Origin: Candidatus Uhrbacteria bacterium
GTDB taxonomy: Bacteria > Patescibacteriota > Patescibacteriia > UBA9934
DNA length: 64,000 nt
NCBI GenBank assembly: GCA_018664485.1
Contig: JABJOE010000009.1
Span: 76,635 to 140,634 of the forward strand
Reading direction: 5' to 3'
The translations under genes were made by a program, and so were the position numbers. The notes under the pieces are model-generated. The model was not told the origin of the DNA. It searched no databases and saw only the letters and a program-made list of their open reading frames with translations. This document shows, in pieces, positions 4,238-34,865 of this stretch (positions within the stretch are counted from its first letter, which is position 1; each line of letters opens with the position of its first letter).

Positions 4238-4669
4238 CTATGCCCAAAGCTTATTCAAGTCATTGCCGCTGATGAACTCAGGCATGTGAACACCTCTTTT
4301 TGTCTGACGAGAAGCCCTTGCCTGTCTACGAATCAACTGGCAAAGCTCCATTGCCCTGGGCACTTCGTTAGCGTCCACGTGTGCCCCTGAACTCATACGG
4401 CATGTAACACCGCCATCACCGTTCTCCATGTACTTCAACACACCTGGATGACGAACCATCTTAACGCCCAGATCCAGAACCTGCTGATAGGTGATGTCTC
4501 CAAAACCCAGCGCATGTGCCGAAACGACTGTCTGCCTACGACTCGTAGGAAGAGCGCCGTGCCCCAGAAGGGCTGTAGGACGAATTACTGTGACCGATGA
4601 ACCGTCTGCGAACCAAAAGGTCCTCATTCCGAGCTCATCCCTCTGATAAAGCGGCTGATTTTCAGCCAT
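4238..4669 (-). CDS. hypothetical protein, GC-rich cassette A (143 aa)
   Basis: ORF 4238..4762 trimmed to MAENQPLYQ..., which follows the conserved leader repeat directly. The N-terminal extension in the ORF track is just translation of the repeat. No recognisable family. Confidence 0.5.
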   Translation of the reverse strand: MAENQPLYQRDELGMRTFWFADGSSVTVIRPTALLGHGALPTSRRQTVVSAHALGFGDITYQQVLDLGVKMVRHPGVLKYMENGDGGVTCRMSSGAHVDANEVPRAMELCQLIRRQARASRQTKRGVHMPEFISGNDLNKLWA

Positions 4670-4729
4670 ATCGTCTCTTCTGAACCGTAGTTTTGTCCGG
4701 CTCGCAGCGCATCCCTGGGGAGATCCCAG
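4670..4729 (-). repeat. conserved cassette leader, copy A (about 48 nt plus covarying 5-bp hairpin)
   Basis: Gene-strand consensus CAGGGATGCGCTGCGAGCCGGACAAAACTACGGTTCAGAAGTAAAGAGGA then ATG. Four copies at 4670, 5162, 5601 and 6171. Confidence 0.85.
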
Positions 4730-4786
4730 AGTGTACGCATCTAAGCCCCCGAGTGATCGCACTCGGGAGACGCAGTATCTGTGGAC

Positions 4787-5161
4787 CTAAAGGCAAACCG
4801 GATAATGAATCACTCCTGATTGATCAGAAGCTACAGACTGCTCAGCGAGCATTCTCTCAACCTGCCTAACCTTGTCCATATCGCGAAGCACTTGTGTTAT
4901 TCCTTTGTCATCAACCCATTCAAACGCCACTCTGTAGCGACCCTTGAAGTGCTGCCGGAATATCTTCACCCCTCGGACTTCACGAGTTCCAGGAAGGAAC
5001 CAAGTCATAAGGAGTGACAAGAGCCACGGCCACTTCACGAAAAAGTTCGTGAGTCTCGTCTGCTCTCCAACAAGCCTTCTTCCACTGGAGAACCAGATTT
5101 CCAGCTCACCCTGTCCGTTCACTGCCGTGTGAACGGGAACCATTTCCTTGATAGATTTCAT
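4787..5161 (-). CDS. hypothetical protein, GC-rich cassette B (124 aa)
   Basis: The ATG sits immediately after the leader repeat, which ends in an AGAGGA Shine-Dalgarno sequence. No recognisable family. Confidence 0.5.
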   Translation of the reverse strand: MKSIKEMVPVHTAVNGQGELEIWFSSGRRLVGEQTRLTNFFVKWPWLLSLLMTWFLPGTREVRGVKIFRQHFKGRYRVAFEWVDDKGITQVLRDMDKVRQVERMLAEQSVASDQSGVIHYPVCL

Positions 5162-5225
5162 TCCTCTTTACTTCTGAACCGTAGTTTTGTCCGGCTCGCA
5201 GCGCCTCTTTGAAACCAATCAAAGA
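5162..5225 (-). repeat. conserved cassette leader, copy B
   Basis: Near-identical to copy A. The preceding hairpin TTTGA-ttggt-TCAAA covaries with CTGGG-atctc-CCCAG of copy A. Confidence 0.85.
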
Positions 5226-5276
5226 AGAGCGATAGAGCCCCAAAGCGTCACGCGCTTTGGGAAGGTCTGGACCTTT

Positions 5277-5600
5277 TTAGATCCGATCAATTCTTGCCAT
5301 GACACAAATACACCTAATAGTATCACCTAGTTCAAAGATGAAGCGCAGCGTTACCTGTCTAGCAGCTTGAATACAGGTGTAGACCAAAATGTTCATGGCA
5401 CCATCCTCACTGTAATGGCTTCCTGCACGGTACCAAAGTGGACTATCTCTAAGGATTTCGTCCAACTCTGCGAACCAGTCACTATTTCGAGACACCATCA
5501 CTCGATAATGAGACTCGTGAAGAAAGTCTCTCGGAATGAAATTCGGATTAGGCTCGAAGGTTCCATAAGGAACTGGAACTATGACTATAGAGCTACTCAT
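5277..5600 (-). CDS. hypothetical protein, GC-rich cassette C (107 aa)
   Basis: The ATG sits immediately after the leader repeat. No recognisable family. Confidence 0.45.
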   Translation of the reverse strand: MSSSIVIVPVPYGTFEPNPNFIPRDFLHESHYRVMVSRNSDWFAELDEILRDSPLWYRAGSHYSEDGAMNILVYTCIQAARQVTLRFIFELGDTIRCICVMARIDRI

Positions 5601-5661
5601 GTCTTTTTACAGAACCGTGGTTATTTCCGGCTCGCAGCGCATCCCTGAAACGAATTTTCAG
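5601..5661 (-). repeat. conserved cassette leader, copy C
   Basis: The GGGATGCGCTGCGAGCCGG core is conserved. The hairpin CTGAAA-attcg-TTTCAG covaries with the other copies. Confidence 0.8.
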
Positions 5662-5753
5662 AGCTGTGCAGTTGAGCCACCGAGAGAAAATCTCTCGAGT
5701 GACACGAACTTTTGTTTATGCGGTGTTCGTACGTAGAACCGCTAGATATGAAC

Positions 5754-6170
5754 TTATTTTACTGGCGGTCGAAGGAAGCGCTGATCAACCATTTTTTTGT
5801 ACTTTTCAGTTGACAGTTCTTCGTATGTGAGCTGAGTCGGGTAAACAATCCCCTCACAGATACTAGCAGCCTCCTGCTGTCCAGCAATCCGCAACAGGAG
5901 CTCTCTTCGATCGTCTGCGAGTGTGACGTGGTAGCCACCTCTCACGTCCAACCAATAGACAGTGTCACCTTCCTCATCATCAAAGTAAGCCAGAATTCCT
6001 GCAAAGAATCCGTACTCGACGTCATTGAGGACATTGTCAGGATCCTTCACCTTTCCGTACCTGTACTCCGTTCCTTTTGGGGCCCCGCAGCACCTTCCGT
6101 CCAGTGCGAAGATCCATTCTTTTCCGGTGATGATGACCTTGATCAGGTCACTAGATGTGCTATCGGGCAT
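5754..6170 (-). CDS. hypothetical protein, GC-rich cassette D (138 aa)
   Basis: ORF 5754..6293 trimmed to MPDSTSSDLIK..., which follows the leader repeat (…GTAAAGAG ATG). No recognisable family. Confidence 0.5.
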   Translation of the reverse strand: MPDSTSSDLIKVIITGKEWIFALDGRCCGAPKGTEYRYGKVKDPDNVLNDVEYGFFAGILAYFDDEEGDTVYWLDVRGGYHVTLADDRRELLLRIAGQQEAASICEGIVYPTQLTYEELSTEKYKKMVDQRFLRPPVK

Positions 6171-6233
6171 CTCTTTACTTCTGAACCGTGGTAGAACCGG
6201 CTCGCAACGCATCTCTAGAAAAGAACTTCCTAG
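6171..6233 (-). repeat. conserved cassette leader, copy D (first in transcription order)
   Basis: …GATGCGTTGCGAGCCGGTTCTACCACGGTTCAGAAGTAAAGAG ATG. Confidence 0.8.
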
Positions 6234-6366
6234 CTTATGCGTATTTAGGCCCCCGAGATAACTCGGATGTAAAAAAACTGGCAACCACAACAATTAAGTC
6301 GTAATCCCAGTAATCTGATCGCTGGTTCAGAGATATATTGTCTGACAATTCTTTACCTCTGAGACA

Positions 6367-6395
6367 AGGATAGCATAAAATCGCACTTTTGTCAA
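6367..6395 (-). promoter_or_regulatory. putative promoter of the cassette array (TTGACA, 17 nt, TGcTATCCT)
   Basis: Gene-strand ACTTGACAAAAGTGCGATTTTATGCTATCCT. About 24 nt are identical, spacer included, to the promoter at 18625 and highly similar to the one at 29905. Confidence 0.45.
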
Positions 6396-6427
6396 GTACG
6401 ACCGAACAAATAAATCGCTTATCTTAG

Positions 6428-8035
6428 CTAATTTTGTTCCAAAATTGCCTCTTCGGGGTGATTTTTACGCATAATCTTTCGGCGAAGTCCGCTAACTATA
6501 TTGAGTAGCTCCTCGCTTTTGAACAGATAAGCAATTGATACATAAACAAGAAGTCCAGCGCCACCTGCAACCAACAATTGAGCGAAAACGCCAACAAATG
6601 TATCGAGTGTAATCCACTCAACTACAACACCCTTAACAATCTGAGTAACGACCCCACAGCATGCCGCAGCAGCCACAAAGACCAATAGAGACTTTGCAAT
6701 GTGCAACTCGCCCAAGCTCCCCATCTTCACACGTAACCACCCCCATAGGAAGACGAACTGAATGACAACAGCAATCGAATATGCAGCGCCTAATCCGATT
6801 ACACCAAATTCTTGGGTTAATAACACCGCGGCAAATCCATGAAATACAGCCGCGAACGTTCCTATTATAAACGGAGCAACTGTCTGCCCACGTGAAAAGT
6901 ATACTCGCACCAATAAGTAAATTAGCGCCTGGATAGTCAGCGTCATAGCAAAGAGCCCCAATGTGTTCGCGGTAAGAATTGTAGCCTCCCAGTCGAATTG
7001 ACCAGCACCCACCACTAAACGGACAACCTGCGCACGAAGCATGATGAATAGAACTGTTGCAGGAACTAAAAAGAATAACATCTGCCTTGCCGTGGATGAG
7101 ATCGTTTGTACAAACGCTTTCTTCTTTTTATCATTCGCCAACTCGCACAATGTCGGATACGCAGCTATAGCGTACGACACCCCAATGATCCCAACTGCAA
7201 AAAAGTTCAAATTATATGCGAATTGCAAAACCGTTACTGACCCTACAGCTAACGTTGAAGCGATAGCAGTCATCAAAAAGATATTCACCTGCCCCACCGC
7301 AAGACCTAGGGTTCTCGGCATCATATGCTTAAGCGTATAGATAACGTCTTTGTCTTTGAGAACTAAACTAAATTTAAAACGATGACCAAGCGCCCTCGCC
7401 CCCATCCATTGCGTAAACATATGCAATGCGGCTCCGATAACAACACCCCAAGCCAGACCTATCGGCCACTCTTCCGTTGCAATCCATACAGCTCCAACGA
7501 TAATACCTACATTGTAAAAAATTGGAGCCAGCGAGTATATAAAGAACCGCTTAGCACCCTGTAGCACCGATCCGTAGATCATAGACACGGACAAAAGGAA
7601 CTGAGCTAAGAACATCACACGGGACATGTCAGCGACCATATCAAGCTTAGCCTGCGAGAATCCAGGGGCAACCATGGCGGCTAATGGATCGGCCGCAACC
7701 ATCATTATAAGCGTCACTACACCAAAACCGATAGCAACCAGTGTAAGCATGGTGTTTGTAAATTTCCACGCCTTCTTTATTCGTTTTTTGTGATAGTACT
7801 TTGTAAAAATCGGAATGAAACTAGCAGAAAGTGCTCCCACGACAATCATCTGAAACATCAAATCAGGAATCCGAAATGCTGCAAAATACACATCTAAGAC
7901 ATCAGAAGCTCCAAACAGTCCAGCCAAGATTCTATCGCGAACGAATCCTACAAGACGAGACAGAATCGAAAACAGTGCAACAATTGCTGCTGCACTTGTA
8001 ATCGTATTAGATTTTCCTGAGAGCCATGAAAACAT
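6428..8035 (-). CDS. murJ: lipid II flippase MurJ (MviN family)
   Basis: 535 aa polytopic membrane protein. The N-terminal VGFVRDRILAGLFGASDVLDVYFAAFRIPD is characteristic of MurJ. Confidence 0.85.
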   Translation of the reverse strand: MFSWLSGKSNTITSAAAIVALFSILSRLVGFVRDRILAGLFGASDVLDVYFAAFRIPDLMFQMIVVGALSASFIPIFTKYYHKKRIKKAWKFTNTMLTLVAIGFGVVTLIMMVAADPLAAMVAPGFSQAKLDMVADMSRVMFLAQFLLSVSMIYGSVLQGAKRFFIYSLAPIFYNVGIIVGAVWIATEEWPIGLAWGVVIGAALHMFTQWMGARALGHRFKFSLVLKDKDVIYTLKHMMPRTLGLAVGQVNIFLMTAIASTLAVGSVTVLQFAYNLNFFAVGIIGVSYAIAAYPTLCELANDKKKKAFVQTISSTARQMLFFLVPATVLFIMLRAQVVRLVVGAGQFDWEATILTANTLGLFAMTLTIQALIYLLVRVYFSRGQTVAPFIIGTFAAVFHGFAAVLLTQEFGVIGLGAAYSIAVVIQFVFLWGWLRVKMGSLGELHIAKSLLVFVAAAACCGVVTQIVKGVVVEWITLDTFVGVFAQLLVAGGAGLLVYVSIAYLFKSEELLNIVSGLRRKIMRKNHPEEAILEQN

Positions 8036-12739: not shown

Positions 12740-12796
12740 CTTGCTTTTTTGCTAATATTTGCTACGATCTTTGCGAACATCAGCCCGGATTATTGA

Positions 12797-13117
12797 ATGA
12801 GCCACGTGCTACCTGTTATTAGCAGTATTATTTTCACCGATCTTTTAGACTCGTTTCAGCCTGCTAGATTCACCGGCCAAGGCCCCGCCTACGACGTGAC
12901 ATCAGACACACCCCTTAAAAGTGGGCCAATCGGACTCTATCGTCCAAAGGAAAAGGGTGCTGCCCCCTACAGGGTCACGTTCCGACATGGACAAGGAGAC
13001 GATTTCATTGTCATCCAGGACCTATCCATGAACATCCGAGTCCCCAAAGGTCTCACAACCTTCGGCGCGCTTATCACCGCGTTGAACGAGACCATTAAAG
13101 CTGAAGAGACTAAATAG
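12797..13117 (+). CDS. hypothetical protein in a moderately GC-elevated patch
   Basis: ORF of 106 aa with no recognisable motifs. Local GC is visibly higher than the flanks. Confidence 0.4.
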   Translation: MSHVLPVISSIIFTDLLDSFQPARFTGQGPAYDVTSDTPLKSGPIGLYRPKEKGAAPYRVTFRHGQGDDFIVIQDLSMNIRVPKGLTTFGALITALNETIKAEETK

Positions 13118-13191
13118 TCAAGCGGCAGCAACAACTCTAGCCCTCTCCGCCGGCCCCTTGTGGTCGGCGCCCGTGCTTAAACAATATTTTT

Positions 13192-14370
13192 ATGGCTACA
13201 ACATCCAAATGTCCAAAACATGAAGTCTGCGGATCATGCAAATGGTCTCATATTCCATACAAAAAGCAGCTGAAGCAAAAGTTGTCAGATATCAACGGGT
13301 CTCTTGCTATCAAGAAGCTTGATTTAAAGTGTACGGAAATTCTTCCATCACCTGTCACAGACCATTACCGGAACCGAATGGATTTTGTGATCAACTTTGA
13401 AGGATTGGTTGGAATGCGAGAGAAAGGAAAATGGTGGCGCGTAATTGATAATCACACCTGCTTTTTATCAGACGAAAAAATCGAAAACTTATTTTCAAAA
13501 ATACACGCATGGTCCAAGTCTGCCGGCCTATCATATTTTGATCGTAAATCTCACGTTGGACTTCTACGCTACGCTGTAGTTCGCTCAACAAGTACCGGTG
13601 AGACTCTCATCAACATCATTACAAGCGATCCGTCGGTAAGTGAAGTTCCGGAAGATGATAAATCTACTCACAAGCCATGTGTCGAATCTGAGGAAGACAT
13701 TCGTGCGGTGCTTGAGAACCTGCAAGAATTAGCAGGGCCGACTACATTGATCTGGACTACAAACGCAACTATCTCTGACGTATCATTTGGAGAGAAAGAA
13801 ACTGTAATCACAGGGCCAGGTTATTTGACTGAGAACATTAACGGAGTTTCATACCGTATAAGTCCGCAGTCATTTTTCCAAACTAATCTATACGCGGCAC
13901 CCCTTCTGCAAGAAACCGTCGTTGGACTAATCGATGAGGATGCAAAAACTGTTTTGGACCTTTACTGTGGATCTGGATTCTTCAGCCTTCCGATTGCGCA
14001 GAAAGTAGATCATGTCACAGGTGTGGAGTTAAACGAGTTCGCCATTGCTGACGCCAAGATTAACGCTGAGCAAAATAAAATTACAAACGTTGAGTTCTTC
14101 TCTGCGAAAACTGAATCGCTAAAACTTACTGATTACAAGGCTGACACAATAGTTGTGGACCCTCCCCGCTCTGGAATGCACGACGATGCCCTTGCGTCCC
14201 TCATGGAGACCGGTGCCAAGCAAATCATATATATTTCATGTAGTTACAAAAATCTCGCGCGTGAACTCGTTACACTAACCGAGAAATACGAAGTGGCCGA
14301 CATGCTCGCAATCGACATGTTCCCCCACACGCCTCACGTAGAGGTAGTGTGTAATCTAAGGTTAAAGTAG
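13192..14370 (+). CDS. RNA (uracil-5-)-methyltransferase, RumA/RlmD/TrmA family
   Basis: N-terminal Cys cluster (CPKHEVCGSCKW). SAM-binding LDLYCGSGFF. Catalytic VDPPRSG near the C-terminus. Confidence 0.75.
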   Translation: MATTSKCPKHEVCGSCKWSHIPYKKQLKQKLSDINGSLAIKKLDLKCTEILPSPVTDHYRNRMDFVINFEGLVGMREKGKWWRVIDNHTCFLSDEKIENLFSKIHAWSKSAGLSYFDRKSHVGLLRYAVVRSTSTGETLINIITSDPSVSEVPEDDKSTHKPCVESEEDIRAVLENLQELAGPTTLIWTTNATISDVSFGEKETVITGPGYLTENINGVSYRISPQSFFQTNLYAAPLLQETVVGLIDEDAKTVLDLYCGSGFFSLPIAQKVDHVTGVELNEFAIADAKINAEQNKITNVEFFSAKTESLKLTDYKADTIVVDPPRSGMHDDALASLMETGAKQIIYISCSYKNLARELVTLTEKYEVADMLAIDMFPHTPHVEVVCNLRLK

Positions 14371-14381
14371 TGCAGCTCTTG

Positions 14382-14428
14382 AGGTTATAGGTTTCAAGTA
14401 TTAGGTTTTAGCGCCGATACCTAAAACT
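14382..14428. repeat. partial copy of the TAGGT-heptad palindromic (IVS-like) element
   Basis: GAGGTTATAGGTTTCAAGTATTAGGTTTTAG-cgccga-TACCTAAAAC. The left arm carries TAGGT heptads and the right arm is truncated. Confidence 0.3.
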
Positions 14429-14496: not shown

Positions 14497-14892
14497 CTAC
14501 CGCTCAAACAAAGACCATCGTGGTTTCATCAAGAAGTATAAAATCGCTGGCCCCACGAATCCAAGTAGTGAGCGAACGATATCGATTCCAATTACCAAAT
14601 TTATAACAAACGCTATAGCGGCTACAAAAACAATTGCATAAAACCCTGACACCTTGAAGCGTATCAACAATATTGCTGACACAATATTTACAACTCCCAA
14701 CAACCCAAGCATCACCAGCGCCCAAGACGGCGTAATCTCTGTAGCACCTTGAAGCGGACTTAACTGTGGTGAAATCACTGCTCCTAAATGCGCGATAGCT
14801 ACGATCACGTTTGAAATAAGCACAAGCCACAACCAAACCAATAACCACAATCCATGCTTCTTTACTCTTGCGCTCGGCTTTGAAGATTCCAT
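14497..14892 (-). CDS. hypothetical small integral membrane protein
   Basis: Four predicted hydrophobic helices; no family recognised. Confidence 0.5.
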   Translation of the reverse strand: MESSKPSARVKKHGLWLLVWLWLVLISNVIVAIAHLGAVISPQLSPLQGATEITPSWALVMLGLLGVVNIVSAILLIRFKVSGFYAIVFVAAIAFVINLVIGIDIVRSLLGFVGPAILYFLMKPRWSLFER

Positions 14893-14909
14893 AATAAAAA
14901 ACTGTAAAA

Positions 14910-15377
14910 TTAACTATTAGCTTTTAGTCGTTTAGCAACGTCCTCATCGAGCAGGCCTTTTTGTGAAGCACTATGCACCCACTGCGCGAATGTAGTTTTT
15001 GCAATCGGTAAAATATCCTGCAGGTCATCTAGTAAATCCTGATCTTTGCGAGATAAAATATCAGGGTGATCAATCAGTGACCGCCAATCAAGTCCCAGCA
15101 TTGCACGGGCCTCACGAACAAGTTCTGGCTTGCGTGTAAACTTCGCGAGAGCTCCCAGTACTTCTATTTCAAATCTGGCATCCGGGTAATGTTCAAACTC
15201 ATCTAATAACAACTGTCTCTCATGAGGATCCGACGGCAAGGAATTTAACACCGCGGCAATAGGCTCCCCGTCCAAAGACACAGCATCCTTGAAACGGATC
15301 TGGAAGTTCATGATCAAATTGTCGACTGGTGTAGTTCCCACAGTAACGTTTAAATATTTTATTGCGACGTTAATCAC
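14910..15377 (-). CDS. hypothetical protein
   Basis: ORF of 155 aa; the start may be the internal MNFQIRF. Confidence 0.45.
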   Translation of the reverse strand: MINVAIKYLNVTVGTTPVDNLIMNFQIRFKDAVSLDGEPIAAVLNSLPSDPHERQLLLDEFEHYPDARFEIEVLGALAKFTRKPELVREARAMLGLDWRSLIDHPDILSRKDQDLLDDLQDILPIAKTTFAQWVHSASQKGLLDEDVAKRLKANS

Positions 15378-18124: not shown

Positions 18125-18592
18125 ATGAAGAATTTTAGCACATATATCATAGTTGGCATTGCCATTCTATCCACCGTTCTGCTGACCGGTCGTCTTTTTG
18201 ATACTACCTGGGCTGGAGGCGACGGATATAGCACTCAGGGCACTGCAGTCGCAGATGAAGCCGTCTATCAACGTGGAGAAACAATAGCTACTCTAGATGG
18301 CGAATGGCTGGAAGTGCAAATCGGCGACACGACAGTCTGGATGTACGAGAATACTGAATTGAAGCTCATCAACCTATCTGAGGATGGTCTCGAACTGACG
18401 GTAATTCAGGGACGAATCGTGCTATATGGTCACGCCGACATGCGAATACGCGATGAGGTCGAAACTTTGGATGGATTATATTCCTACGTTAACTATAGCT
18501 GGCTTTTAAAAACAGATGTCCAATACATAAATGACGATTTTAACTACTCCGAGTCTGAAGCTGCAGACTTCTACGATTGGGCTTTGTTTTAG
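18125..18592 (+). CDS. hypothetical membrane-anchored protein
   Basis: First ATG of ORF 18104..18592. N-terminal TM helix, then a beta-rich domain. Confidence 0.5.
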   Translation: MKNFSTYIIVGIAILSTVLLTGRLFDTTWAGGDGYSTQGTAVADEAVYQRGETIATLDGEWLEVQIGDTTVWMYENTELKLINLSEDGLELTVIQGRIVLYGHADMRIRDEVETLDGLYSYVNYSWLLKTDVQYINDDFNYSESEAADFYDWALF

Positions 18593-18624
18593 CTAAAATT
18601 AGCGACTTTTTTGCTCAAAGGTAC

Positions 18625-18653
18625 TTGACAAAAGTGCTTTTTTATGTCATTAT
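18625..18653 (+). promoter_or_regulatory. promoter module ACTTGACAAAAGTGCTTTTTTATGTCATTAT (shared with cassette arrays)
   Basis: Consensus -35 TTGACA, 17-nt spacer, CATTAT. Spacer sequence is identical to the array promoter at 6367..6395. Confidence 0.55.
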
Positions 18654-18753
18654 GGGCACGACGAAAGTCACTTCACCCAAAAACAACGGCTCAAAGCCAA
18701 AACGCGGCAACCCCGCAATCGAGAGACTATTGAAACTGAAGACACTGGTCGCA

Positions 18754-19122
18754 ATGGCCACCATCATGTTCGCAACCTTCGCCACCAAGACCGCCGAGGC
18801 ATGCGGAGGTGAAAACTTGCATATGTACTTCGGCTACGACTGGTTCGTCTACAGGTTGCCGAAGGATCACCCAAAGGGTGCTACGGTTGTAAGAGCGATC
18901 CCCAAATCGAAACTCACCGTTGTCATTGACGACGAGGGCGATAGCACGGTCGTCACTCTCCATGAGGGTGATAAAACCCTGATGACCGGAAAGATCTTCG
19001 CATGCTTCCGCTGTATGAGTTCCCCGACCTACATCAAATGGGAAGACCCTGAGACAAGAAAAGAACGAAAAGTGAACGACAAGGGTACCGCAGCGGCCCG
19101 ACTCGCATGCGTGAGCGAATAG
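18754..19122 (+). CDS. hypothetical protein in a GC-rich island (start uncertain)
   Basis: The upstream part of the ORF overlaps the promoter -10, so the start was moved to MATIMFATFATKTAEA (signal-peptide-like). The 5' UTR carries a GAC-GAAA-GTC tetraloop hairpin like the cassette leaders. Confidence 0.4.
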   Translation: MATIMFATFATKTAEACGGENLHMYFGYDWFVYRLPKDHPKGATVVRAIPKSKLTVVIDDEGDSTVVTLHEGDKTLMTGKIFACFRCMSSPTYIKWEDPETRKERKVNDKGTAAARLACVSE

Positions 19123-19200
19123 CGCTCTCACCCCGCATGACATCACCCCCTCCTGGTTCTCCGGGAGAGGGTGATTTGCTTTTGCGGTACCCTTCACCAA

Positions 19201-20574
19201 CTAAAACACAAACTCTTGCGAGAACATCGGAATGATTACCTCGCTATCAATTTCTTTTTCAATAAACTCTTTGAATTCTGGCTTTACCTTCTCATCACCG
19301 TGCACCAAAAATACCTGATCTATCTTCCCTTCTTTTGGTTTGAGCCAGGATCGTAGCTTGTTACGATCACCATGCGCCGAGAATGACCCGATAGCCTTGA
19401 TAGTCGCGTTTACATCTATATCCTTCTGGTGAATCTTAACTTTCTTTGCACCATCTTTAATCTGGCGCCCCAGAGTTCCCTCTGCCTGGTAACCGATGAT
19501 CAATACCCCGCTCTTTTTATCTGACAGATACCGAATAAGATGATGCAGGATTCTCCCACCTGTCATCATTCCGGATCCAGCAATAATAATCTTTGGGCCA
19601 CGATCGCTGTTGATCTTTTTCGACGCATCCATTCGCAACGTCTCCACCAAACGTGGGAACGTAAAGAAGTCATGGTCTGAACTTGAATGAATCGGCCGAT
19701 CAAAACGTAGATAATGTTTAAAATGTCTGTAAATTTCAGTAGCTTTAATTGCAAGCGGACTATCCAAATATACCGGAACCTTGGGTAGAACCCCCTCGTC
19801 TGCCAGCAGGTCCAACTCATAAAGTAACTCCTGTGTACGCTCGATCGAAAATGCAGGAATAAGCAATGTTCCTCCACGATTAATGATCGACGACACCATC
19901 TTTACCAACTCCTTATTACGTTGCGGAACAGGTTCATGATCGCGATTACCGTAAGTCGTCTCACATACAACTATATCCGCCTTCAAAATAGGCTCTGTGT
20001 CTGGTAGAATTGGTACCTCCTCATTTCCAATATCTCCACTAAATAGTAATCGTTTTGGTTTACCGTCTTCTGTTTCACTCCCTGGTACATCGATAGTTAC
20101 ATACGCAGAACCTAAGATATGACCTGCGTCGTGGAACATCACATTTACACCCGGAACAATCTCAAACTGAGTGTGGTATCCGATACCTTTCATCTGGGAT
20201 TCTGTTCTCTTTACATCATCAGGAGAAAATAAAATAATGTCACCATTACGCCGAGCATTTTCGGACATGACATGCTGAGCGTCTTCAAGCACGATAGATG
20301 CCAACGCTTTGGTTGGTGGAGTTGTATAAATCGTTCCCCGGAATCCCTGCTTCACGATGAGCGGATAGCGTCCGATGTGATCGTAATGAGCATGCGTGAT
20401 AATTCCAGCATCGATGTCCTTAGCATTAAATCCAACGTCTATCAGATTCTTATTAGACACCATTCGCTGACCCTGGAACATTCCACAGTCAACAAGTATT
20501 TTACTCTCTTTAAACTCCAACAAAAAACACGACCCGGTTACGCCGCGGACTCCTCCGTGAAAAGATAGCTTCAT
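19201..20574 (-). CDS. metallo-beta-lactamase / beta-CASP family ribonuclease
   Basis: HAHYDH metal-binding motif plus a beta-CASP region and C-terminal His, typical of the RNA-metabolising MBL family. Confidence 0.75.
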   Translation of the reverse strand: MKLSFHGGVRGVTGSCFLLEFKESKILVDCGMFQGQRMVSNKNLIDVGFNAKDIDAGIITHAHYDHIGRYPLIVKQGFRGTIYTTPPTKALASIVLEDAQHVMSENARRNGDIILFSPDDVKRTESQMKGIGYHTQFEIVPGVNVMFHDAGHILGSAYVTIDVPGSETEDGKPKRLLFSGDIGNEEVPILPDTEPILKADIVVCETTYGNRDHEPVPQRNKELVKMVSSIINRGGTLLIPAFSIERTQELLYELDLLADEGVLPKVPVYLDSPLAIKATEIYRHFKHYLRFDRPIHSSSDHDFFTFPRLVETLRMDASKKINSDRGPKIIIAGSGMMTGGRILHHLIRYLSDKKSGVLIIGYQAEGTLGRQIKDGAKKVKIHQKDIDVNATIKAIGSFSAHGDRNKLRSWLKPKEGKIDQVFLVHGDEKVKPEFKEFIEKEIDSEVIIPMFSQEFVF

Positions 20575-25427: not shown

Positions 25428-27302
25428 CTATCTACTCGGAGCGATCTCCAGGTAATCAAGCATAAAATCTGCTATCTCACCGAAAATTGGTGCCGCAGTG
25501 TCGGCGGCCCACGGAGTTGCTCGAGGATGCTCTATCTTCACCACCATAACGAACTGTGGATTTTCAATCGGACCAAAACCTACAAAAGTAGCATTTGTGA
25601 GATCTTCTGAATAACCACCGCTATCGGCAACCTGAGCTGTACCAGTTTTTCCAGCAATGTAATACCCATCAACTCCAGCCAATCCGGCATGCCCATTCTC
25701 AATCACTGACACTAGCATTGCCCCTATCGTCGTTGCCGTTGTCTTGTCGAGTACCTGTCGCACACTGCGTGGGGACATATGCTCAACGGTCCCGTCAGTA
25801 TAACGTTTTTCATCAACCACATAGGGCTGCATCAGCCAACCGCCATTTGCAATCGCACCATAAGCAGCAGCGATCTGCATTGGCGTCGACGTTATACCCT
25901 GACCATAACTACCAGTAGCATAATAAATCTCGTGATCTTTATACAAAGATTCAATAGTTCCACTTACCTCGGTATCCAAATCGATCCCCGACAATGTTCC
26001 AAATCCAAAATCTTCGTAATATCGAGTCATTACAAGACCTGTCATCTGGCGCATCACGAAAATCATTCCCGTGTTTAATGATTCTTCCAGAACCTGCGTC
26101 ATGGTCTGCAGCCCATGTGACTTCAAGTCCGAGTTTCGAATAGTGTACTCTTCAATTTCCTCCTCCCCGGTATCAACATAGGTAGTACTTGGAGTAACCG
26201 CTCCCACATCAATCGCCCCAGCCATTACCAACGCCTTCATCACAGACCCCGGCTCATACGCTGTGAAAATGGCATCGTTGTTGTACACAGCGACATCTTC
26301 TACTTCATTATACGCATTAGGATCGAAGTCTGGTGCGCCACACATGGCGATTACACGTCCCGTTGCAGGCTCTAGGATGACCACAGACCCGCCATCGGCA
26401 TCATATCGCTCAACTCCCTCTTGAAGCTTCCTGCACGCAGCGTGCTGGATTGTGCGATCGATTGTAAGCAGTAAGTCTCCCCCATCTTTTGCAGCTTCAA
26501 ACTCACGGCGTCCAACACCAATCCATCGCCCTACAGAATCAGTCTGAGCGTCTAGGAATCCGTTATCTCCATCGAGAAAATCGTTATAATAACCTTCAAG
26601 GCCATACTGTCCATATATCCCTTCGTTGGTATTTGAAACAAAGCCAAAGAGATGACCTCCCATGTTTACCTCTGGGTAAGATCTGACATCTTCGAGAATA
26701 TAGTAAATACCATCCAGCTCCAGTTCTAGAATTTTGTCTAAAGTTGATTCTGGTACATGACGTTCTATCGGTTCATATGGATCGTTCTCTTTTGAAAGTC
26801 GTTCAAGTAAAATTTCGTATTCTGAAAATTCAGGAGCCACTTCAGCTTCCTCGACAGGTACAGTCTCCTCGCCGTCAATTTCATCTAGCAATAAATCCAG
26901 TACATCATCGGGTTCTGTAATTTCAATTTCGTATCCTAAAATTTTCGCTATTGCGAGCGCTGTATATTCGGGGTCTTCAATCTTTCGAGGTTCTGCGTAG
27001 ATGAATGCTCGAGCTTCATTTGTAGCTGCAGCGTACTCACTGTCGTCTTTCCAATCTTTTACATATATAGTCCCCCGTTCTGCAATGAGCTCTTTATATA
27101 CATCATGCTGTCCGGAAGCAAGTGACGCATAAAACCCAGCATTTACAACCTGCAATGTAAAAAGTCTAAAAACAAGTAATCCAGCAAAAACAAAAAAGAA
27201 CGCTCGAAGGGCATTGAAGCGCCAATCTTTGCGTGTCTTTGTTGATTTTCTCTTACGAGGAGGCATGAGCGCATTATAGCAGGAGGCGCCTATCACCTCC
27301 AC
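25428..27302 (-). CDS. ftsI: penicillin-binding protein 2 / FtsI-type transpeptidase
   Basis: N-terminal TM anchor. SxxK (SVMK), SxN and KTGT (AGKTGTAQV) motifs. Confidence 0.85.
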   Translation of the reverse strand: MEVIGASCYNALMPPRKRKSTKTRKDWRFNALRAFFFVFAGLLVFRLFTLQVVNAGFYASLASGQHDVYKELIAERGTIYVKDWKDDSEYAAATNEARAFIYAEPRKIEDPEYTALAIAKILGYEIEITEPDDVLDLLLDEIDGEETVPVEEAEVAPEFSEYEILLERLSKENDPYEPIERHVPESTLDKILELELDGIYYILEDVRSYPEVNMGGHLFGFVSNTNEGIYGQYGLEGYYNDFLDGDNGFLDAQTDSVGRWIGVGRREFEAAKDGGDLLLTIDRTIQHAACRKLQEGVERYDADGGSVVILEPATGRVIAMCGAPDFDPNAYNEVEDVAVYNNDAIFTAYEPGSVMKALVMAGAIDVGAVTPSTTYVDTGEEEIEEYTIRNSDLKSHGLQTMTQVLEESLNTGMIFVMRQMTGLVMTRYYEDFGFGTLSGIDLDTEVSGTIESLYKDHEIYYATGSYGQGITSTPMQIAAAYGAIANGGWLMQPYVVDEKRYTDGTVEHMSPRSVRQVLDKTTATTIGAMLVSVIENGHAGLAGVDGYYIAGKTGTAQVADSGGYSEDLTNATFVGFGPIENPQFVMVVKIEHPRATPWAADTAAPIFGEIADFMLDYLEIAPSR

Positions 27303-27733
27303 TACGTAGCACTCACATCATCCTCTGCAACGATCTGACCGATTGAAACCACTCGGTCTCCTGTAACGTCAGATATAACAACTCGGAGGAGCTCTCCCTC
27401 ACTTTCAAAGTCTTTAAACGTAACAGGCTCAATAACTACACCATCCTCGTCGATCACGTTACCCTTCCCTTCGTAAGAAAACTCAAAGTCTTTGTTGCGG
27501 AATACGACGATAGCCTCACTTGGGTCTACATCTTCATCAGCTTCTTCAAAAAGCATAATCTCATCAGATCCGATGTCGATAGATAGCCAACGTCCGCTCT
27601 CATTGCGAATCCAATAAACACTCTCACCTGTATCTAAAACGGCCTGATCGATTGTGTCTGGGTCGAAAGACAAGCTCTTAACAAGAACCGGCTGCTCCTC
27701 CTGTAGACGGCTTAATAGGTCTTGGATATTCAT
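27302..27733 (-). CDS. hypothetical acidic protein upstream of ftsI
   Basis: ORF 27302..28192 trimmed to MNIQDLLSRLQ. The upstream part overlaps the GC-rich plus-strand gene and was discarded. Confidence 0.45.
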   Translation of the reverse strand: MNIQDLLSRLQEEQPVLVKSLSFDPDTIDQAVLDTGESVYWIRNESGRWLSIDIGSDEIMLFEEADEDVDPSEAIVVFRNKDFEFSYEGKGNVIDEDGVVIEPVTFKDFESEGELLRVVISDVTGDRVVSIGQIVAEDDVSAT

Positions 27734-27929
27734 ACGAAAAGAGTATAACGCTCTGTGGGTTTTTTTGTAAATACCTAGCGCGGAATTGTCCACATTATTG
27801 ACTATTTGGCTCAAAATTGCTAACTTAATTCCTTCTTCGCTTTTCTGGCGTGGAGAGGGCTTACGGACCCTGGCAATGCCAAAGACGTAAAAACAACCTG
27901 AAACCTTGCGCCAGTGGCGCGGAGGTAAT

Positions 27930-28733
27930 ATGAGACGACCAGACGATACACCCCTTCCCAACCAGTCAACATTCGAAAAGGCCGTAATGGGACACGGTGA
28001 TTGCACGTACTTCGGTACCATGTTCACAAAGTCGCAGGCACAAGCCGGCAAGTCGGTAGATCGGGCGTACGAAGCAGCCGCTACGGCAGCGGGCATGCTG
28101 ACGACTGATGGAAGGGACGAAGTAGATATTCCCGGCGACTTTTTCGTAGGTCGCTGCTCTGCGGCAAATGAGAATGGACACTCGTGGTTCACGGCTCACT
28201 GGTTCGAATATAGGCTTCCTTTGTACGGAATGATGCTGACCAATCCCGAGTATCAAGCGACAGCGCTCCTGCTTGCAGGATATCTCCAGCTTGGCGAAGG
28301 GATAACCGGAAAGAAATTCGCTCACTACAGGGTACTCGAAGGACTGAAGTTTCTTCCAATCGTCCTGTCCCCCTCGGGCATTCGGTTCTACATGTATCGT
28401 CCGACCACAGAGAGTATGCGCAAAGCGGCGATACAGTTCGCAGAAGTCCTCACGCGCATGCGCGCTCACGGATTTCTGAGCAAAGAAGGTTTGATGAATG
28501 CATTCCTGAGCGTGCACACAATTCTGGGAATCAAGCGGGTACAGGACCTTGCTCGTAATGAAGTTACTGCAGAGTCAATTGCTGCCGCCATTGCAGCCCT
28601 CCATACAGAGTTCGTGGAATCCCTAGGCGGAATGACTGGCGGTTCCCTGGGCATGGTTCTCAGGGATGTCGGACACGGCCCGCACGATACAAAGCTCTTC
28701 GACGCTGGTAAAGGCAAAATTCGTCGGAGCTAG
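27930..28733 (+). CDS. hypothetical protein in a GC-rich island (267 aa)
   Basis: Start at the ATG 5 nt after a GGAGG SD. GC is clearly elevated over the flanks. A strong terminator follows. No recognisable family. Confidence 0.5.
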   Translation: MRRPDDTPLPNQSTFEKAVMGHGDCTYFGTMFTKSQAQAGKSVDRAYEAAATAAGMLTTDGRDEVDIPGDFFVGRCSAANENGHSWFTAHWFEYRLPLYGMMLTNPEYQATALLLAGYLQLGEGITGKKFAHYRVLEGLKFLPIVLSPSGIRFYMYRPTTESMRKAAIQFAEVLTRMRAHGFLSKEGLMNAFLSVHTILGIKRVQDLARNEVTAESIAAAIAALHTEFVESLGGMTGGSLGMVLRDVGHGPHDTKLFDAGKGKIRRS

Positions 28734-28744
28734 CTGCCACTCGT

Positions 28745-28784
28745 CCGCCATCGACCCTCGTGTCGGTGGCGGGCTGTTGCTTTT
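28745..28784 (+). terminator. intrinsic terminator of the GC-rich gene
   Basis: CCGCCATCGAC-cctcgt-GTCGGTGGCGG followed by GCTGTTGCTTTT. Confidence 0.65.
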
Positions 28785-28815
28785 AACCAACTATTCACCA
28801 CACGCTTTAAAATAT

Positions 28816-29403
28816 TTAAAAATCCAATCCCTCGCGAGCTTTTACTCCTGAATAGAAATAGTGACGTTCAAGTTTTGATTCTGTAATTAAATGGGCGGCT
28901 TCTAAAAATTCAGGACATGGATCACGGCCGGTCAAAATAACTTCTACATCTTCGTTCTTTTGCGCAAGAGCATCTAAAACCAGCTTTGAATCGAGCATCC
29001 CAAGATCAGTTGTAGAGTTTATTTCATCGAGGATAACAAGACTGTATTCACCGCTCGTTAAAAACCCTCGTGTTAACTCAAGTCCGCGACTCGCTTCTTT
29101 CTTATCGATGTCTGTAATTGAAAAATCAAAGCGTCCATTCACAGGATCTATTCGATCACGACCTGTTACGAAATAATCAATGTTTTCTATTTTATCTAGC
29201 GCAAGGCGCTCGAAGTAATGATCATTCCCACCTTTATCAAAATAAACAATAGTCACTTTGCGACCTGATCCAGCACAACGAATTGCCTGCCCAAGCGCCG
29301 CCGTTGTCTTTCCTTTACCATGCCCGTGAATGAGCTGAATAAGTCCATACCCTTGCCTTCCAAGGATTCGTTTATCCGCTATTGGTTGTTGTTTTTCCGT
29401 CAT
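28816..29403 (-). CDS. cobO: cob(I)yrinic acid a,c-diamide (corrinoid) adenosyltransferase, CobO/BtuR type
   Basis: P-loop GHGKGKTTAA. Conserved ILDEI and the C-terminal HYFYSGVKAREGLDF block. Confidence 0.8.
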   Translation of the reverse strand: MTEKQQPIADKRILGRQGYGLIQLIHGHGKGKTTAALGQAIRCAGSGRKVTIVYFDKGGNDHYFERLALDKIENIDYFVTGRDRIDPVNGRFDFSITDIDKKEASRGLELTRGFLTSGEYSLVILDEINSTTDLGMLDSKLVLDALAQKNEDVEVILTGRDPCPEFLEAAHLITESKLERHYFYSGVKAREGLDF

Positions 29404-29537
29404 AAAATTGACAAAGCCTTGTTTTGTATTAAAATTTGATCAAATTCCTGCGTCACATACCAGGTCGGTTTACGAAAGTGAACTAAGTAGGAAAATTTCA
29501 CCTCACCAAATGAAATCTATTGAAGCTGGAGGATACC

Positions 29538-29753
29538 ATGGCTCTGGATGACGTTTTGGCAAGAGAGATGGGTCGTGAACCTGCAGCCGGCCACCAAGGA
29601 CAGACACGCGCACCCACTGACCAATCAATCGGTAATGCGATGAGATTCGCTGCCGCATGTAGACGACTCTCAGCGAGAGCGAGGCACGGCCACCACAAGC
29701 GACTCCCACGACGCCAAACAGAACAAGAAACGCCCCATTGGCACATCGACTAG
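29538..29753 (+). CDS. hypothetical small basic protein, GC-rich tandem cassette 1 (71 aa, ends PHWHID)
   Basis: ATG 5 nt after a GGAGGA SD. The last 6 codons lie inside the 123-bp direct repeat. Confidence 0.45.
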   Translation: MALDDVLAREMGREPAAGHQGQTRAPTDQSIGNAMRFAAACRRLSARARHGHHKRLPRRQTEQETPHWHID

Positions 29754-29860
29754 CCCGCGTCACCATCTTGGCGTGAGGAGCACCCGTACGATCTGATCGT
29801 GCGGGTGCCTTGCTTTTTACATGTAAAAAAACCGCTCTACCCTCACAACAAAACTTTCTA
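29738..29860 (+). repeat. 123-bp direct repeat copy 1 (ORF 3' end + terminator + T/A palindrome)
   Basis: Near-identical to 30421..30543. Contains the hairpin GCACCCGTACGATC-tga-TCGTGCGGGTGC, then CTTGCTTTTTACATGTAAAAAAA. Confidence 0.9.
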
Positions 29861-29904
29861 CGCATACACAACCAAATTACGTATTTTTTTGCTACTCATA
29901 TACT

Positions 29905-29933
29905 TGACAAAAGACCTATTTTATGACAATATT
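29905..29933 (+). promoter_or_regulatory. promoter module ACTTGACAAAAGACCTATTTTATGACAATAT for cassette 2
   Basis: TTGACA, 17 nt, CAATAT. Homologous to the modules at 18625 and 6395. Confidence 0.5.
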
Positions 29934-30040
29934 TTATCCTAATTCCTGTGCTATATGCCAGGTCGGTTCACGAAAGTGAGCTCAGGAGGACCAGGTTTCC
30001 ATCCTTATCCAATGGGGACATCAGAGACAAGGAGGGCTAC

Positions 30041-30436
30041 ATGCCCGCAACCGGAGACAAGGACTACGTCCGCTATCTCGTCAGAACCAGTGGAGGAGTC
30101 AAACGATTCCGTGACTCACAGGATTCGCCTGATGGCGGCCGCGTTGAAGTCCCGTTCGAACTCAGCATCATGTCCTGGAATGGCAAGAGATGGGTCCACC
30201 CGCAGCCTACCAATAACTGGATCGTGATCATCGACGGCACGCATCGTGGCAATATCGCTGGAAGTGTTCTTCTTCGAGGTAAAATGCGTCGACGGCACCA
30301 TGACGCAGGTATCCGTAAAGAATACGACTTCAAGGGCATCCGGTTCTTCGGCCATAGCCCTCTTGTAGGAAGTGCTCTCGGATTCCTCAACGTCTGGGAT
30401 CACGGCACAAGCCCGCCCGCTTGGCACATCGACTAG
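30041..30436 (+). CDS. hypothetical protein, GC-rich tandem cassette 2 (131 aa, ends PPAWHID)
   Basis: ORF 29948..30436 trimmed to MPATGDKDY, 6 nt after an AAGGAGG SD. The C-terminal 6 codons are shared with cassette 1 through the direct repeat. Confidence 0.45.
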   Translation: MPATGDKDYVRYLVRTSGGVKRFRDSQDSPDGGRVEVPFELSIMSWNGKRWVHPQPTNNWIVIIDGTHRGNIAGSVLLRGKMRRRHHDAGIRKEYDFKGIRFFGHSPLVGSALGFLNVWDHGTSPPAWHID

Positions 30437-30543
30437 CCCGCGTCACCATCTTGGCGTGAGGAGCACCCGTACGATCTGATCGTGCGGGTGCCTTGCTTTT
30501 TACATGTAAAAAAACCGCTCTACCCACGCAACAAAACTTTCTA
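30421..30543 (+). repeat. 123-bp direct repeat copy 2
   Basis: See copy 1. Confidence 0.9.
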
Positions 30544-30668
30544 TATATACGCAACCGGGTTGCGTATTTTTTACTACCAACAACCCCAGGTCTTCTCGAC
30601 CCGGGGCTTTCGTATTCCTTCTCTTAAAACCTTCAGAATTGCGTTAGATCTGGCTGTGAAGCTTCGGT

Positions 30669-34005: not shown

Positions 34006-34158
34006 AGGGAAAACATTAGGTAGAACGCAAAACGAATCTACTCGGAGTTAAAATCGACGAAAACGGCAACAATCAGAAGGAAATTTTGGATTATAAAAAT
34101 CCCTTTCGGGACCACTAATTTCCCCCATTTAGATTTGCATACATGCAGTTTCTTGTAC

Positions 34159-34204
34159 CACTACATGTTGTGCCACTGGAGAGATTATACCACTATATGT
34201 TGTG
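34159..34204 (-). promoter_or_regulatory. tandem NrdR boxes overlapping an extended -10 promoter of nrdJ
   Basis: Gene-strand CACAACATATAGTGgTATAAT...(32-nt pitch)...CACAACATGTAGTG. Matches the NrdR box consensus (acaCwAtATaTwGtgt) and the typical 31-32 bp spacing. Confidence 0.6.
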
Positions 34205-34359
34205 TCGGAGAATTTTCTGGGTGTGGATAAAATTTACCGGCAAAAGTACTTGGCTAGCATTGGCGGAGCTACATTGACACGACTCGTAATCTTGTATAAT
34301 ATCCCGTACGACCACTGCAGTAAATTTCTTCTCTGTATTTACAACCTATTGGAGACCGC

Positions 34360-34851
34360 ATGTGCCCCCTTTTGGTCACAGCTACTTCGCAACCCGACTT
34401 TTCAAACCCCTTCTCCATTGTTGGATTTCTGGTACAAAATGCAGCCGACCGTGAAGATGTACAACAAAATGAAATCGACCGGTGGGTAGCTGCAATCGCA
34501 AATATCGACTCTATTACCCGGCACGAAGATCCCGATTTGCGATACAGGCTCGCACAGTGTATTGCCAGATGCGGCTTCGGCCACAGTACCGGGCGCGACG
34601 TCTCGGGCAGTATGCTGCTCAACGAACTGAGCAGCACGGAATGCTACATGGATGGAAGCGAACCGAAAACCGCCCAAGAGATACGTGTAATGCTCTATTG
34701 CGGAAACCTGAATTCTCTTGCAGAAGCACAAGAAGGCGACATTCGTGCTGCGATCTTCGCAGCCTGCGCACTGAAGTATGCGGTTAGAGAATTCGCCTCA
34801 GAGCACCCCGTGCTCGCAATCCAAGTCTACTTGTTTGGTCACGGTAACTGA
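34360..34851 (+). CDS. hypothetical protein in a GC-rich island (163 aa), divergent from nrdJ
   Basis: ATG after a GGAGA SD. Extended -10 TGTATAAT upstream. GC clearly elevated. A strong terminator follows. Confidence 0.45.
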   Translation: MCPLLVTATSQPDFSNPFSIVGFLVQNAADREDVQQNEIDRWVAAIANIDSITRHEDPDLRYRLAQCIARCGFGHSTGRDVSGSMLLNELSSTECYMDGSEPKTAQEIRVMLYCGNLNSLAEAQEGDIRAAIFAACALKYAVREFASEHPVLAIQVYLFGHGN

Positions 34852-34865
34852 TCAACGCCCCTCAC

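Follow-up and report, generated by a model that had tools for sequence, protein, structure and literature searches.

Where do single GC-rich genes wedged between conserved genes of an ultra-small bacterium come from, and are they recent arrivals? The question is raised by a 64,000-nucleotide stretch (contig JABJOE010000009.1 of assembly GCA_018664485.1, positions 76,635 to 140,634 of the forward strand; hereafter the window) that forms part of a genome of ~1 Mb from Candidatus Uhrbacteria (Patescibacteria). An earlier note had described five GC-elevated islands in it and had taken them for genes recently acquired from a high-GC donor, possibly the host of a presumed epibiont. We call these islands islets and place them by their open reading frames (ORFs): ISL1 (12797), ISL2 (18730), ISL3 (27930) and ISL4 (34360), all on the plus strand, and ISL5 (48442) on the minus strand. 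Our own reading, to which we assign a probability of about 0.5, is that the islets are moron-like, self-contained gene modules of the chromosome, of mixed age, from a flexible gene pool rich in G and C at third codon positions (GC3).

All five islands stood up to quantification, and GC content and codon usage are indeed non-uniform. Windows of 300 nt whose GC content exceeds the mean by more than 1.8 standard deviations lie at 12801-13200, 18651-19250, 27801-28875, 34351-34900 and 48201-49200, with the islands peaking at 0.55-0.56; the mean of the window is 0.443, not the roughly 40% given earlier as background. Synonymous GC3 (GC3s) of the five islet ORFs is 0.52-0.64 vs 0.360 ± 0.039 in 49 core genes (z = 4.2-7.2), and the deviation remains at z = 3.8-6.5 after correction for the amino-acid content of each ORF. 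This excess is carried almost wholly by C-ending codons, with G-ending codons mostly not raised: the frequency of C at third positions (C3) is 0.29-0.42 in the islets, compared with 0.14 in core genes of the minus strand and 0.21 in those of the plus strand, and from core genes to islets CCC rises from 0.06 to 0.39, ACC from 0.12 to 0.41 and TTC from 0.37 to 0.75. The islet ORFs also have a higher GC content at first than at second codon positions (GC1 > GC2), a pattern typical of coding sequence. Translational selection as the source of the C3 bias was ruled out by the ribosomal-protein genes S4 and S11, which together with an adjoining gene (124-1661) have a GC3 of 0.34-0.42 and a C3 below 0.20; because these genes lack the bias, it is not the organism's own preferred-codon set. 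The codon usage of the islets is foreign to the genome of the window.

Two further compositional features were recorded. Of 10 GC3-rich units, eight lie on the C-rich plus strand (the lagging strand by GC skew), whereas this is true of 8 of the 55 remaining genes (Fisher p about 1e-4). At 53526-53975, in the N-terminal part of the ORF at 53018-53911, GC content reaches its maximum for the window (0.59), but this peak is no islet: GC1 (0.64) and GC2 (0.48) are high there and GC3 (0.35) is ordinary, so the peak reflects amino-acid composition.

The islands are not products of misassembly. The ISL1 protein occurs in identical form on one 986-kb JGI contig and on 14 shorter contigs from independent metagenomes, and 10 contigs of the same species (nine found by look-up of this protein and one by a cobO scan) match the window at 100% identity over the island junctions, save for 4 mismatches where one contig ends. 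Junctions shared by contigs of independent metagenomes show that the islands are not assembly chimeras.

Genomic slots and architecture of the islets

Relatives within Candidatus Uhrbacteria keep the gene order alaS-murJ-PKD-PTAC-corA-GT2-spoU-trmA-era, and ISL1, ISL2 and ISL3 sit between genes that neighbour each other in relatives. The nearest public genomes, judged by the neighbouring tRNA methyltransferase, are Candidatus Uhrbacteria at 53-58% identity, together with a sister lineage (L020) whose proteins flanking ISL1 are 68-84% identical to those of the window. The gap between spoU and trmA measures 35-58 nt in seven relatives and GT2 abuts trmA in two more, so ISL1 is absent from these nine. 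ISL2 is absent from L013, where its flanking genes stand in order with a mere 360-nt gap. An orthologue of the gene at 27302-27793 follows cobO within 14-43 nt in L024, L025 and L026 (14 nt in L024), which makes ISL3 a 1-kb insert in that spacer, splitting the operon that in relatives runs from cobO to this downstream gene; in L027 neither that orthologue nor an ISL3 homologue lies beside cobO. Since it is missing from these four relatives, including the closest (about 79% identical cobO), ISL3 was either gained since the split or lost from them. The upstream neighbour of nrdJ, beside ISL4, differs in L024. Synteny is broken at ISL1 (nine relatives), ISL2 (L013) and ISL3 (four relatives), and is not broken at ISL1 in L020 or at ISL5 in L029.

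Two spacers are hot spots that hold different GC-rich genes in the sister lineage. Between nrdJ and cobO (L024) it carries an M50-peptidase gene with a GC3 of 0.84, the same CTTGACAAAAG promoter core as in the window and a GC terminator of its own. Between alaS and murJ (L020) it carries a different GC-rich array behind a promoter orthologous to that of array 1, the first of two tandem arrays in the window; alaS and murJ are direct neighbours in seven relatives, from which array 1 is therefore absent.

ISL1 documents the age of such a unit. Its ORF (12797-13117, plus strand) encodes a fast-evolving protein of 106 aa and has a GC3s of about 0.54-0.55, against 0.36-0.37 in core genes. Among 5.8 billion protein clusters only a near-identical copy of itself was found, and a single-sequence AlphaFold model (pLDDT 50) was uninformative. 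At exactly the same site, L020 carries two tandem ISL1 homologues, about 38-39% and 25% identical, with a GC3 of about 0.87 over a background of about 0.55. The upstream block at 12741-12777 (plus strand), the promoter region, matches L020 upstream of the ISL1 homologue at about 34 of 38 nt. Downstream, a GC hairpin at 13148-13182 (plus strand; CGCCGGCC-CCTTGT-GGTCGGCG, -16.5 kcal/mol) is followed by a conserved tail and no T-tract; in L020 the stem is kept with an altered sequence, and its 3' arm and the tail are conserved. In L013, which lacks the ISL1 gene, the 55-nt spoU-trmA spacer contains none of the conserved upstream block, the hairpin arm or the tail. The flanking core genes of the window and L020 are 24-37% identical at four-fold degenerate sites, where chance predicts 23-26%, that is, near saturation. 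The ISL1 unit thus predates the split from the sister lineage, and its protein has changed fast between conserved regulatory ends, which contradicts a recent acquisition. A foreign signature that dated from before the split would be expected to have faded, which means that the GC excess of ISL1 is being maintained or renewed. A match of ISL1 in IMG/VR (L044) was set aside as chance: it rests on a seed of 8 identical residues (TALNETIK) within an AT-rich ORF, and its E-value is relative to the candidate stretches only.

The case for recent import also fails for ISL5. Its ORF (48442-49161, minus strand; GC3s 0.52) encodes 239 aa counted from ATG, and the product is, on its sequence signature, a GNAT acetyltransferase with a CxxC...CxxC zinc-ribbon insert: Pfam PF00583 (Acetyltransf_1) matches residues 111-224 of the 262-aa ORF with 22.9 bits (cut-off 20.7, E = 1.1e-4), and homologues annotated as GNAT, 31-34% identical, keep the invariant cysteines and the G-x-G-K-R motif. 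The earlier note had seen no known family in any island save for a possible GNAT-like C-terminus in the last one; this was right for ISL1 to ISL4 and for the family of ISL5, and too narrow in that the match exceeds the C-terminus. Homologues of ISL5 elsewhere adjoin an M20 peptidase gene, and in the distant genome L029 the same order is found, with the GNAT homologue following an orthologous peptidase gene (48% identical), so ISL5 looks like an old, fast-evolving resident. Two hairpins lie 3' of it (48335-48430, minus strand), the first AT-rich (41% GC, -19.3 kcal/mol) and the second modest and followed by TTTTGTG.

The transcription signals of the islets are less uniform than had been described. 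Consensus promoters are predicted for ISL2, ISL3 and ISL4, and none was identified for ISL5. The best 44-nt hairpins of ISL2 (-25.1 kcal/mol), ISL3 (-25.2) and ISL4 (-23.0) are each followed by a T-tract, compared with a median of -11.9 kcal/mol at 53 other 3' ends of the window, and are its most stable hairpin-plus-T-tract terminators. A strong GC-rich terminator at every island is therefore true of these three and not of ISL1, which lacks a T-tract, or ISL5, with its AT-rich hairpin. Likewise, the good Shine-Dalgarno sequences that had been claimed are present at ISL3 (GGAGG) and ISL5 (GGAGAGG), usable at ISL4 and poor at ISL1.

For ISL2, the predicted promoter (18589-18653, plus strand; TTGACA-17-CATTAT preceded by TG) has its upstream block in common with that of array 1. 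The ORF (18730-19122, plus strand; likely start TTG 18730) encodes a small cysteine-containing protein, and its GC3s of 0.64, taken from ATG 18754, is the highest of the five. The N-terminus, read directly from the sequence, resembles a Sec signal peptide (MKLKTLVAMATIMFATFATKTAEA followed by C), and the product is probably exported. The intrinsic terminator (19143-19184, plus strand; tail TTTGCTTTTG) faces a convergent beta-CASP gene. Pfam, NCBIfam, PHROGs and PADLOC hold no match to ISL2, which was not searched in large databases. A WFxYRLP motif common to ISL2 and ISL3 (21 residues, E = 0.003 in a database of 20 proteins) was dropped, as the alignment of the ISL3 family did not support it. 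An extended promoter core (TACTTGACAAAAG...TATG..ATTAT) occurs at 6374-6431 (minus strand), 18589-18646 (plus strand), 29901-29932 and 56233-56264, and also precedes the M50 islet in L024. A 58-nt upstream block, 81% identical, is common to the promoters of array 1 and ISL2; it includes the palindrome TTAGCTAA and suggests one regulator for both.

ISL4 is preceded by a predicted promoter (34274-34302, plus strand; TTGACA ... TGTATAATAT). Its ORF (34360-34851, plus strand; GC3s 0.53) encodes an ORFan of 163 aa, for which 5.8 billion clusters returned a single match, a 99% identical copy (a Candidatus Uhrbacteria hypothetical protein at NCBI). The intrinsic terminator (34865-34901, plus strand) has 11 pairs, 8 of them G-C, followed by ATGTCTGTTT, and faces a convergent exonuclease gene. 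Nearby, two NrdR-box-like repeats (ACCACTAcATGTTGTG) at 34158-34215 stand upstream of the class II ribonucleotide reductase gene and are conserved in L024.

The ISL3 family and its leader RNA

ISL3 (ORF 27930-28733, plus strand) encodes 267 aa. Its family is uncharacterised and sparse: a search of 1.84 billion representatives gave 28 relatives, most of which share 26-42% identity with it in the stretch that matched, and the eight clusters of relatives that were read have 1-3 members each. An AlphaFold model of high confidence (pLDDT 91, pTM 0.89) found no match in PDB or BFVD by Foldseek, and tblastn against plasmid and phage records found none either. The gene ends in an intrinsic terminator (28743-28784, plus strand) with a 13-pair stem, 9 pairs of which are G-C, followed by TGTTGCTTTT. 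Upstream, a promoter-like site (27798-27826, plus strand; TTGACT-17-TAACTT) lies 5 nt away from the GTG at which the divergent neighbour gene starts, and L033-L035 have promoter-like hexamers equally far upstream of their leaders.

When we read the surroundings of ISL3 homologues in seven other genomes, two contigs proved too short to show any neighbouring gene, and the five homologues with genomic context lie in five different neighbourhoods. A GC terminator follows the homologue in all seven genomes. Compared with the surrounding DNA, GC3 is raised in five of the seven; in the other two it is not (GC3 of 0.64, and of 0.55 vs 0.53 overall GC), one of these being on a contig too short for a fair background. 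One homologue lies inside a 12-kb cluster of unannotated GC3-rich ORFs (L042:2000-14200).

Since homologues and the structure model validate ISL3 as a gene, the antisense ORF at 27966-28517 (minus strand) opposite it is an artefact, as had been supposed earlier for this and three further antisense ORFs (18727-19200, 29503-29871 and 30073-30390); for the others this explanation is plausible. The same holds for the extension beyond about 27793 of the 296-aa ORF at 27302-28192 (minus strand), whose L024 orthologue aligns from residue 134, placing the true start at GTG 27793.

Between promoter and ORF lies a structured 5' leader (27846-27929, plus strand) with hairpins P1 and P2, a possible pseudoknot, and a hairpin P3 abutting the Shine-Dalgarno sequence. 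This leader of ~85 nt precedes ISL3 homologues in six of the seven other genomes (L033:5915-6003, L034:4979-5066, L035:2913-3003, L036:2922-3003, L041:285-371 and L042:6918-7003). Identity of the leader across the window, L033 and L034 is about 75%, in a set whose proteins share 27-29% identity with ISL3 along the full alignment. RNAalifold and direct counting support three helices: helix 1 shows compensatory changes at 5 of 5 pairs, with 94.7% of cells paired compared with 28-56% in slid controls, and the covariation score was reached by none of 500 shuffles. A covariance model built from six leaders found the seventh, untrained copy with E = 6.6e-12, and elsewhere in 341 kb of the window and its relatives it found nothing below E = 0.19 (a weak match in L040). 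No Rfam family attains its gathering score anywhere in the window, and at E <= 10 the region 27780-27960 gave two noise matches only. The ISL3 leader is a previously undescribed structured RNA absent from Rfam. An AGGG upstream that could pair with CCCU in a loop suggests a pseudoknot, as an unscored reading of the alignment; in L041 (AGGC/GCCU) and in L042 (AGGA/UCCU) both sides of one pair have changed.

Like riboswitch-type 5' leaders, this one is better conserved than its protein, has covarying helices and ends in a hairpin that overlaps the ribosome-binding site, and it probably confers translational control on ISL3; unlike them it matches no Rfam family, and by the Rfam models it is not a cobalamin riboswitch. 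A cobalamin gene adjoins the ISL3 family in three of the five neighbourhoods in view, the window included: cobO in the window, cobW in L033 and a PduO-type adenosyltransferase gene in L036. We regard this neighbourhood as a lead and not as a result.

Arrays, small units and repeats

Array 1 (4238-6431, minus strand) has a single promoter (6365-6396) and, downstream of it, four small ORFs, each behind a leader of ~60 nt made of a variable hairpin and a conserved GATGCGCTGCGAGCCGG-ACAAAACTA-CGGTTCAGAAG. At L020:560-2200 the orthologous promoter precedes an array of its own with a different leader repeat. Array 2 (29408-30572, plus strand) holds two tandem units. In each, a promoter is followed by a conserved 50-nt leader, which contains a GAAA-tetraloop hairpin, and by an ORF; their common 159-nt 3' end is 92% identical and takes in the final codons (..WHID*) together with a terminator of -26.6 kcal/mol.

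Two GC-rich small units (ORFs 59811-59951 and 60124-60264) had been missed in the list of islands. They lie between mraZ and uvrC (59754-60319, plus strand), encode single-pass membrane peptides and end in homologous CCGCGCC...GGCGCGG terminators. Mini-unit 1 (59811-60024, plus strand) comprises the first of these ORFs, for a membrane peptide of ~46 aa, and a GC terminator of -21.2 kcal/mol; mini-unit 2 (60067-60319, plus strand) comprises a promoter-like site (CTTGACAAATG), the second ORF, again for a membrane peptide of ~46 aa, and a terminator of -24.5 kcal/mol.

An intergenic repeat of ~30 nt of the AGGTTATAGGT type occurs in direct and inverted copies at 14375-14411, 40234-40263, 40659-40688 and 49286-49375, and one inverted pair brackets a gene at 40277-40642 for a 23S-rRNA-intervening-sequence / Avd-like four-helix-bundle protein. 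The SpoU methyltransferase gene of the sister lineage (L020:8239-9216, minus strand) contains an in-frame insertion of ~160 aa, a DUF559 / restriction-endonuclease-like domain.

Origin of the islets

On the reading of the islets as moron-like modules, each would be an accessory one-gene unit with a predicted sigma-70-type promoter, an ORF of C-rich codons and a terminal hairpin, set in a very short gap of a gene order that Candidatus Uhrbacteria otherwise keep. The units would be drawn from a GC3-rich flexible gene pool common to similar ultra-small bacteria. At a few hot-spot spacers, recombination following DNA uptake would have added, removed, duplicated and exchanged them, a route that we infer because slots are re-used and no recombinase is present. 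Each would probably be transcribed alone, its hairpin predicted to insulate it from the convergent neighbour, and in ISL3 the last leader hairpin, reaching into the ribosome-binding site, probably adds a layer of control. The set would not stem from one event: ISL3 would have been gained since the split or lost from the relatives, ISL1 would date from before the split and ISL5 would be an old partner of the M20 gene.

Several observations weigh against this reading. What weakens it most is that GC-rich codon usage persists, which leaves room for native-gene or re-seeding models: ISL1 has kept its GC3 excess in two lineages with saturated synonymous sites, which is unexpected under acquisition followed by amelioration. 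None of the islets is marked by a mobility gene, a tRNA gene or direct repeats at its flanks; mobility Pfam domains (integrase, transposase) are lacking among the roughly 55 genes scanned, a tRNA scan gave no gene, and no islet-flanking repeat was reported. The donor lineage was not found, ISL1 and ISL4 being without relatives and the relatives of ISL3 and ISL5 being sparse, at most 42% identical over the matched stretch and from uncultured genomes; NCBI lists those with ISL3 homologues as '[bacterium]' only. ISL5 may simply be a native gene, and the islet promoters and terminators are consensus predictions only. Furthermore, two lineage-specific genes of ordinary GC3 (14497-15377, minus strand) lie between trmA and era, which in most relatives are neighbours without them, so GC richness is not true of every insert, and the accessory ORFs in L012-L019 are not GC3-rich. 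A general rule that all accessory genes in Uhrbacteria are GC-rich was rejected, the median difference being about 0 over 52 accessory ORFs in relatives.

The explanation advanced first, that all five islands are recent imports from a high-GC donor, possibly the host of a presumed epibiont, and have not yet drifted towards the composition of the genome, draws on the foreign codon usage and on the absence of ISL3 from the sister lineage. The sister-lineage islets, with a GC3 of 0.84-0.89, also resemble genes of a roughly 65% GC genome, and at L011:14600-17400 a 2.8-kb islet of hypothetical genes has 54-58% GC within a Uhrbacteria genome of 37-40% GC. We nevertheless consider it quite unlikely, as the ISL1 unit is older than a split with saturated synonymous sites, the pairing of ISL5 with the M20 gene recurs in a distant genome, and ISL1 and ISL4 have no relatives among the 5.8 billion protein clusters. 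The taxonomy of the best matches, which was to reveal the donor, is uninformative for ISL1 and ISL4, and among the 28 distant relatives of ISL3 those examined are themselves similar islets in low-to-mid-GC, uncultured genomes. What survives of this explanation is the foreign codon usage and the breaks made by ISL1, ISL2 and ISL3 in a gene order conserved in relatives; recent arrival fails for ISL1 and ISL5, no donor emerges, and nothing in the data points to a host, or to a high-GC phylum, as the source.

Much of what counts against recent import would suit native, vertically inherited, fast-evolving genes whose GC3 and C3 are kept high by selection that acts on codons or messenger RNA (mRNA), or by GC-biased gene conversion where recombination is frequent. 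This would accommodate the GC3 excess that persists in orthologous ISL1 units despite saturated divergence, the conserved regulatory ends around a protein of about 38-39% identity, the old synteny of ISL5, the GC3 richness of the ISL3 family in 5 of 7 other genomes and the position of 8 of 10 units on the C-rich strand. It is unlikely given that ISL2 and ISL3 are absent from relatives and ISL1 from nine of them, that the hot-spot spacers hold unrelated genes in the sister lineage, and that the bias is missing from native genes of high expression. Biased gene conversion in bacteria is also reported (Lassalle et al. 2015) to have effects far below the +0.15-0.3 in GC3 required here. That the islands are not protein genes at all, but structured non-coding RNAs, chance ORFs in GC-rich DNA or assembly chimeras, appears extremely improbable. 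GC-rich DNA does yield long ORFs on both strands, and ISL2 (not searched in large databases) and ISL4 have no homologue that would prove coding; on the other side stand the protein-level conservation of ISL1, ISL3 and ISL5, the confident model of ISL3, the GC1 > GC2 pattern, the lack of any Rfam or tRNA match and the identical junctions in independent assemblies.

The reading of the islets as moron-like modules also finds precedents. Islands of horizontally transferred genes are known in Patescibacteria, with most transfers occurring within the phylum (PMC12455944). Phage morons, as defined in PMC3594210, consist of one gene with its own promoter and intrinsic terminator, lie between genes that are adjacent in relatives, deviate in composition and spread horizontally (Juhala/Hendrix 2000; PMC3594210). 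The islets resemble them in position and composition and, as far as both a promoter and a strong terminator are predicted (ISL2, ISL3 and ISL4), in architecture, and horizontal spread would be a further likeness; they differ in lying on a cellular chromosome, in being GC-richer than their surroundings and in including at least two old residents. Near the islets no phage genes were found, the neighbours being core housekeeping genes; the islet proteins had no PHROG match, and IMG/VR scans with ISL1 to ISL4 gave no credible match. Searches of Pfam, NCBIfam, PHROGs and PADLOC with all islet and array proteins yielded the ISL5 GNAT match as the sole result, hence none at all for ISL1 to ISL4, and PADLOC found no defence signature among them.

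Flexible or replacement genomic islands at conserved hot spots of streamlined marine bacteria, a concept reportedly due to Rodriguez-Valera and colleagues, offer a second comparison. The islets likewise show unrelated genes in the same slot (against L020 and L024) and no mobility genes, exchange probably proceeding by homologous recombination in the flanks; unlike those islands, which span many kb, they are one gene long (0.4-1 kb) and GC-richer. Integron cassettes and clusters of cassettes such as CALINs are also short single-ORF units ending in an imperfect inverted repeat, as are the islets, and the window holds two tandem arrays. An integron reading was rejected: there is no integrase in the window, the hairpins on reading lack R''/R' (RYYYAAC/GTTRRRY) cores, and the units have promoters of their own and T-tracts like those of terminators.

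A bolder version would see in these promoter-to-terminator units a distinct class of recombinase-free mobile gene modules among Patescibacteria, some with their own regulatory RNA and with a composition that is actively kept. It could be kept either through repeated re-seeding, with an unrecognised GC-rich pool of viral or extrachromosomal genes as the source, or through some GC-biased process that acts locally. We hold this to be distinctly unlikely. Flexible islands and ORFans are reportedly AT-richer than the core as a rule (a finding associated with Daubin and Ochman in 2004 and Rocha and Danchin in 2002), and such a class, if real, would reverse it for accessory genes and ORFans alike.

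GC-rich codon usage that persists across saturated divergence is an anomaly for standard models of amelioration. As one-gene GC-rich units in fixed slots, the islets provide a simple compositional handle on the accessory 'dark matter' of such genomes. They also supply definite targets: a new candidate regulatory RNA together with a protein family without known fold, often near cobalamin genes, and ISL1 between its conserved control elements. Genomes of the candidate phyla radiation are tiny and rich in unknown genes, and how such cells gain genes, and from which source, bears on their life with hosts.

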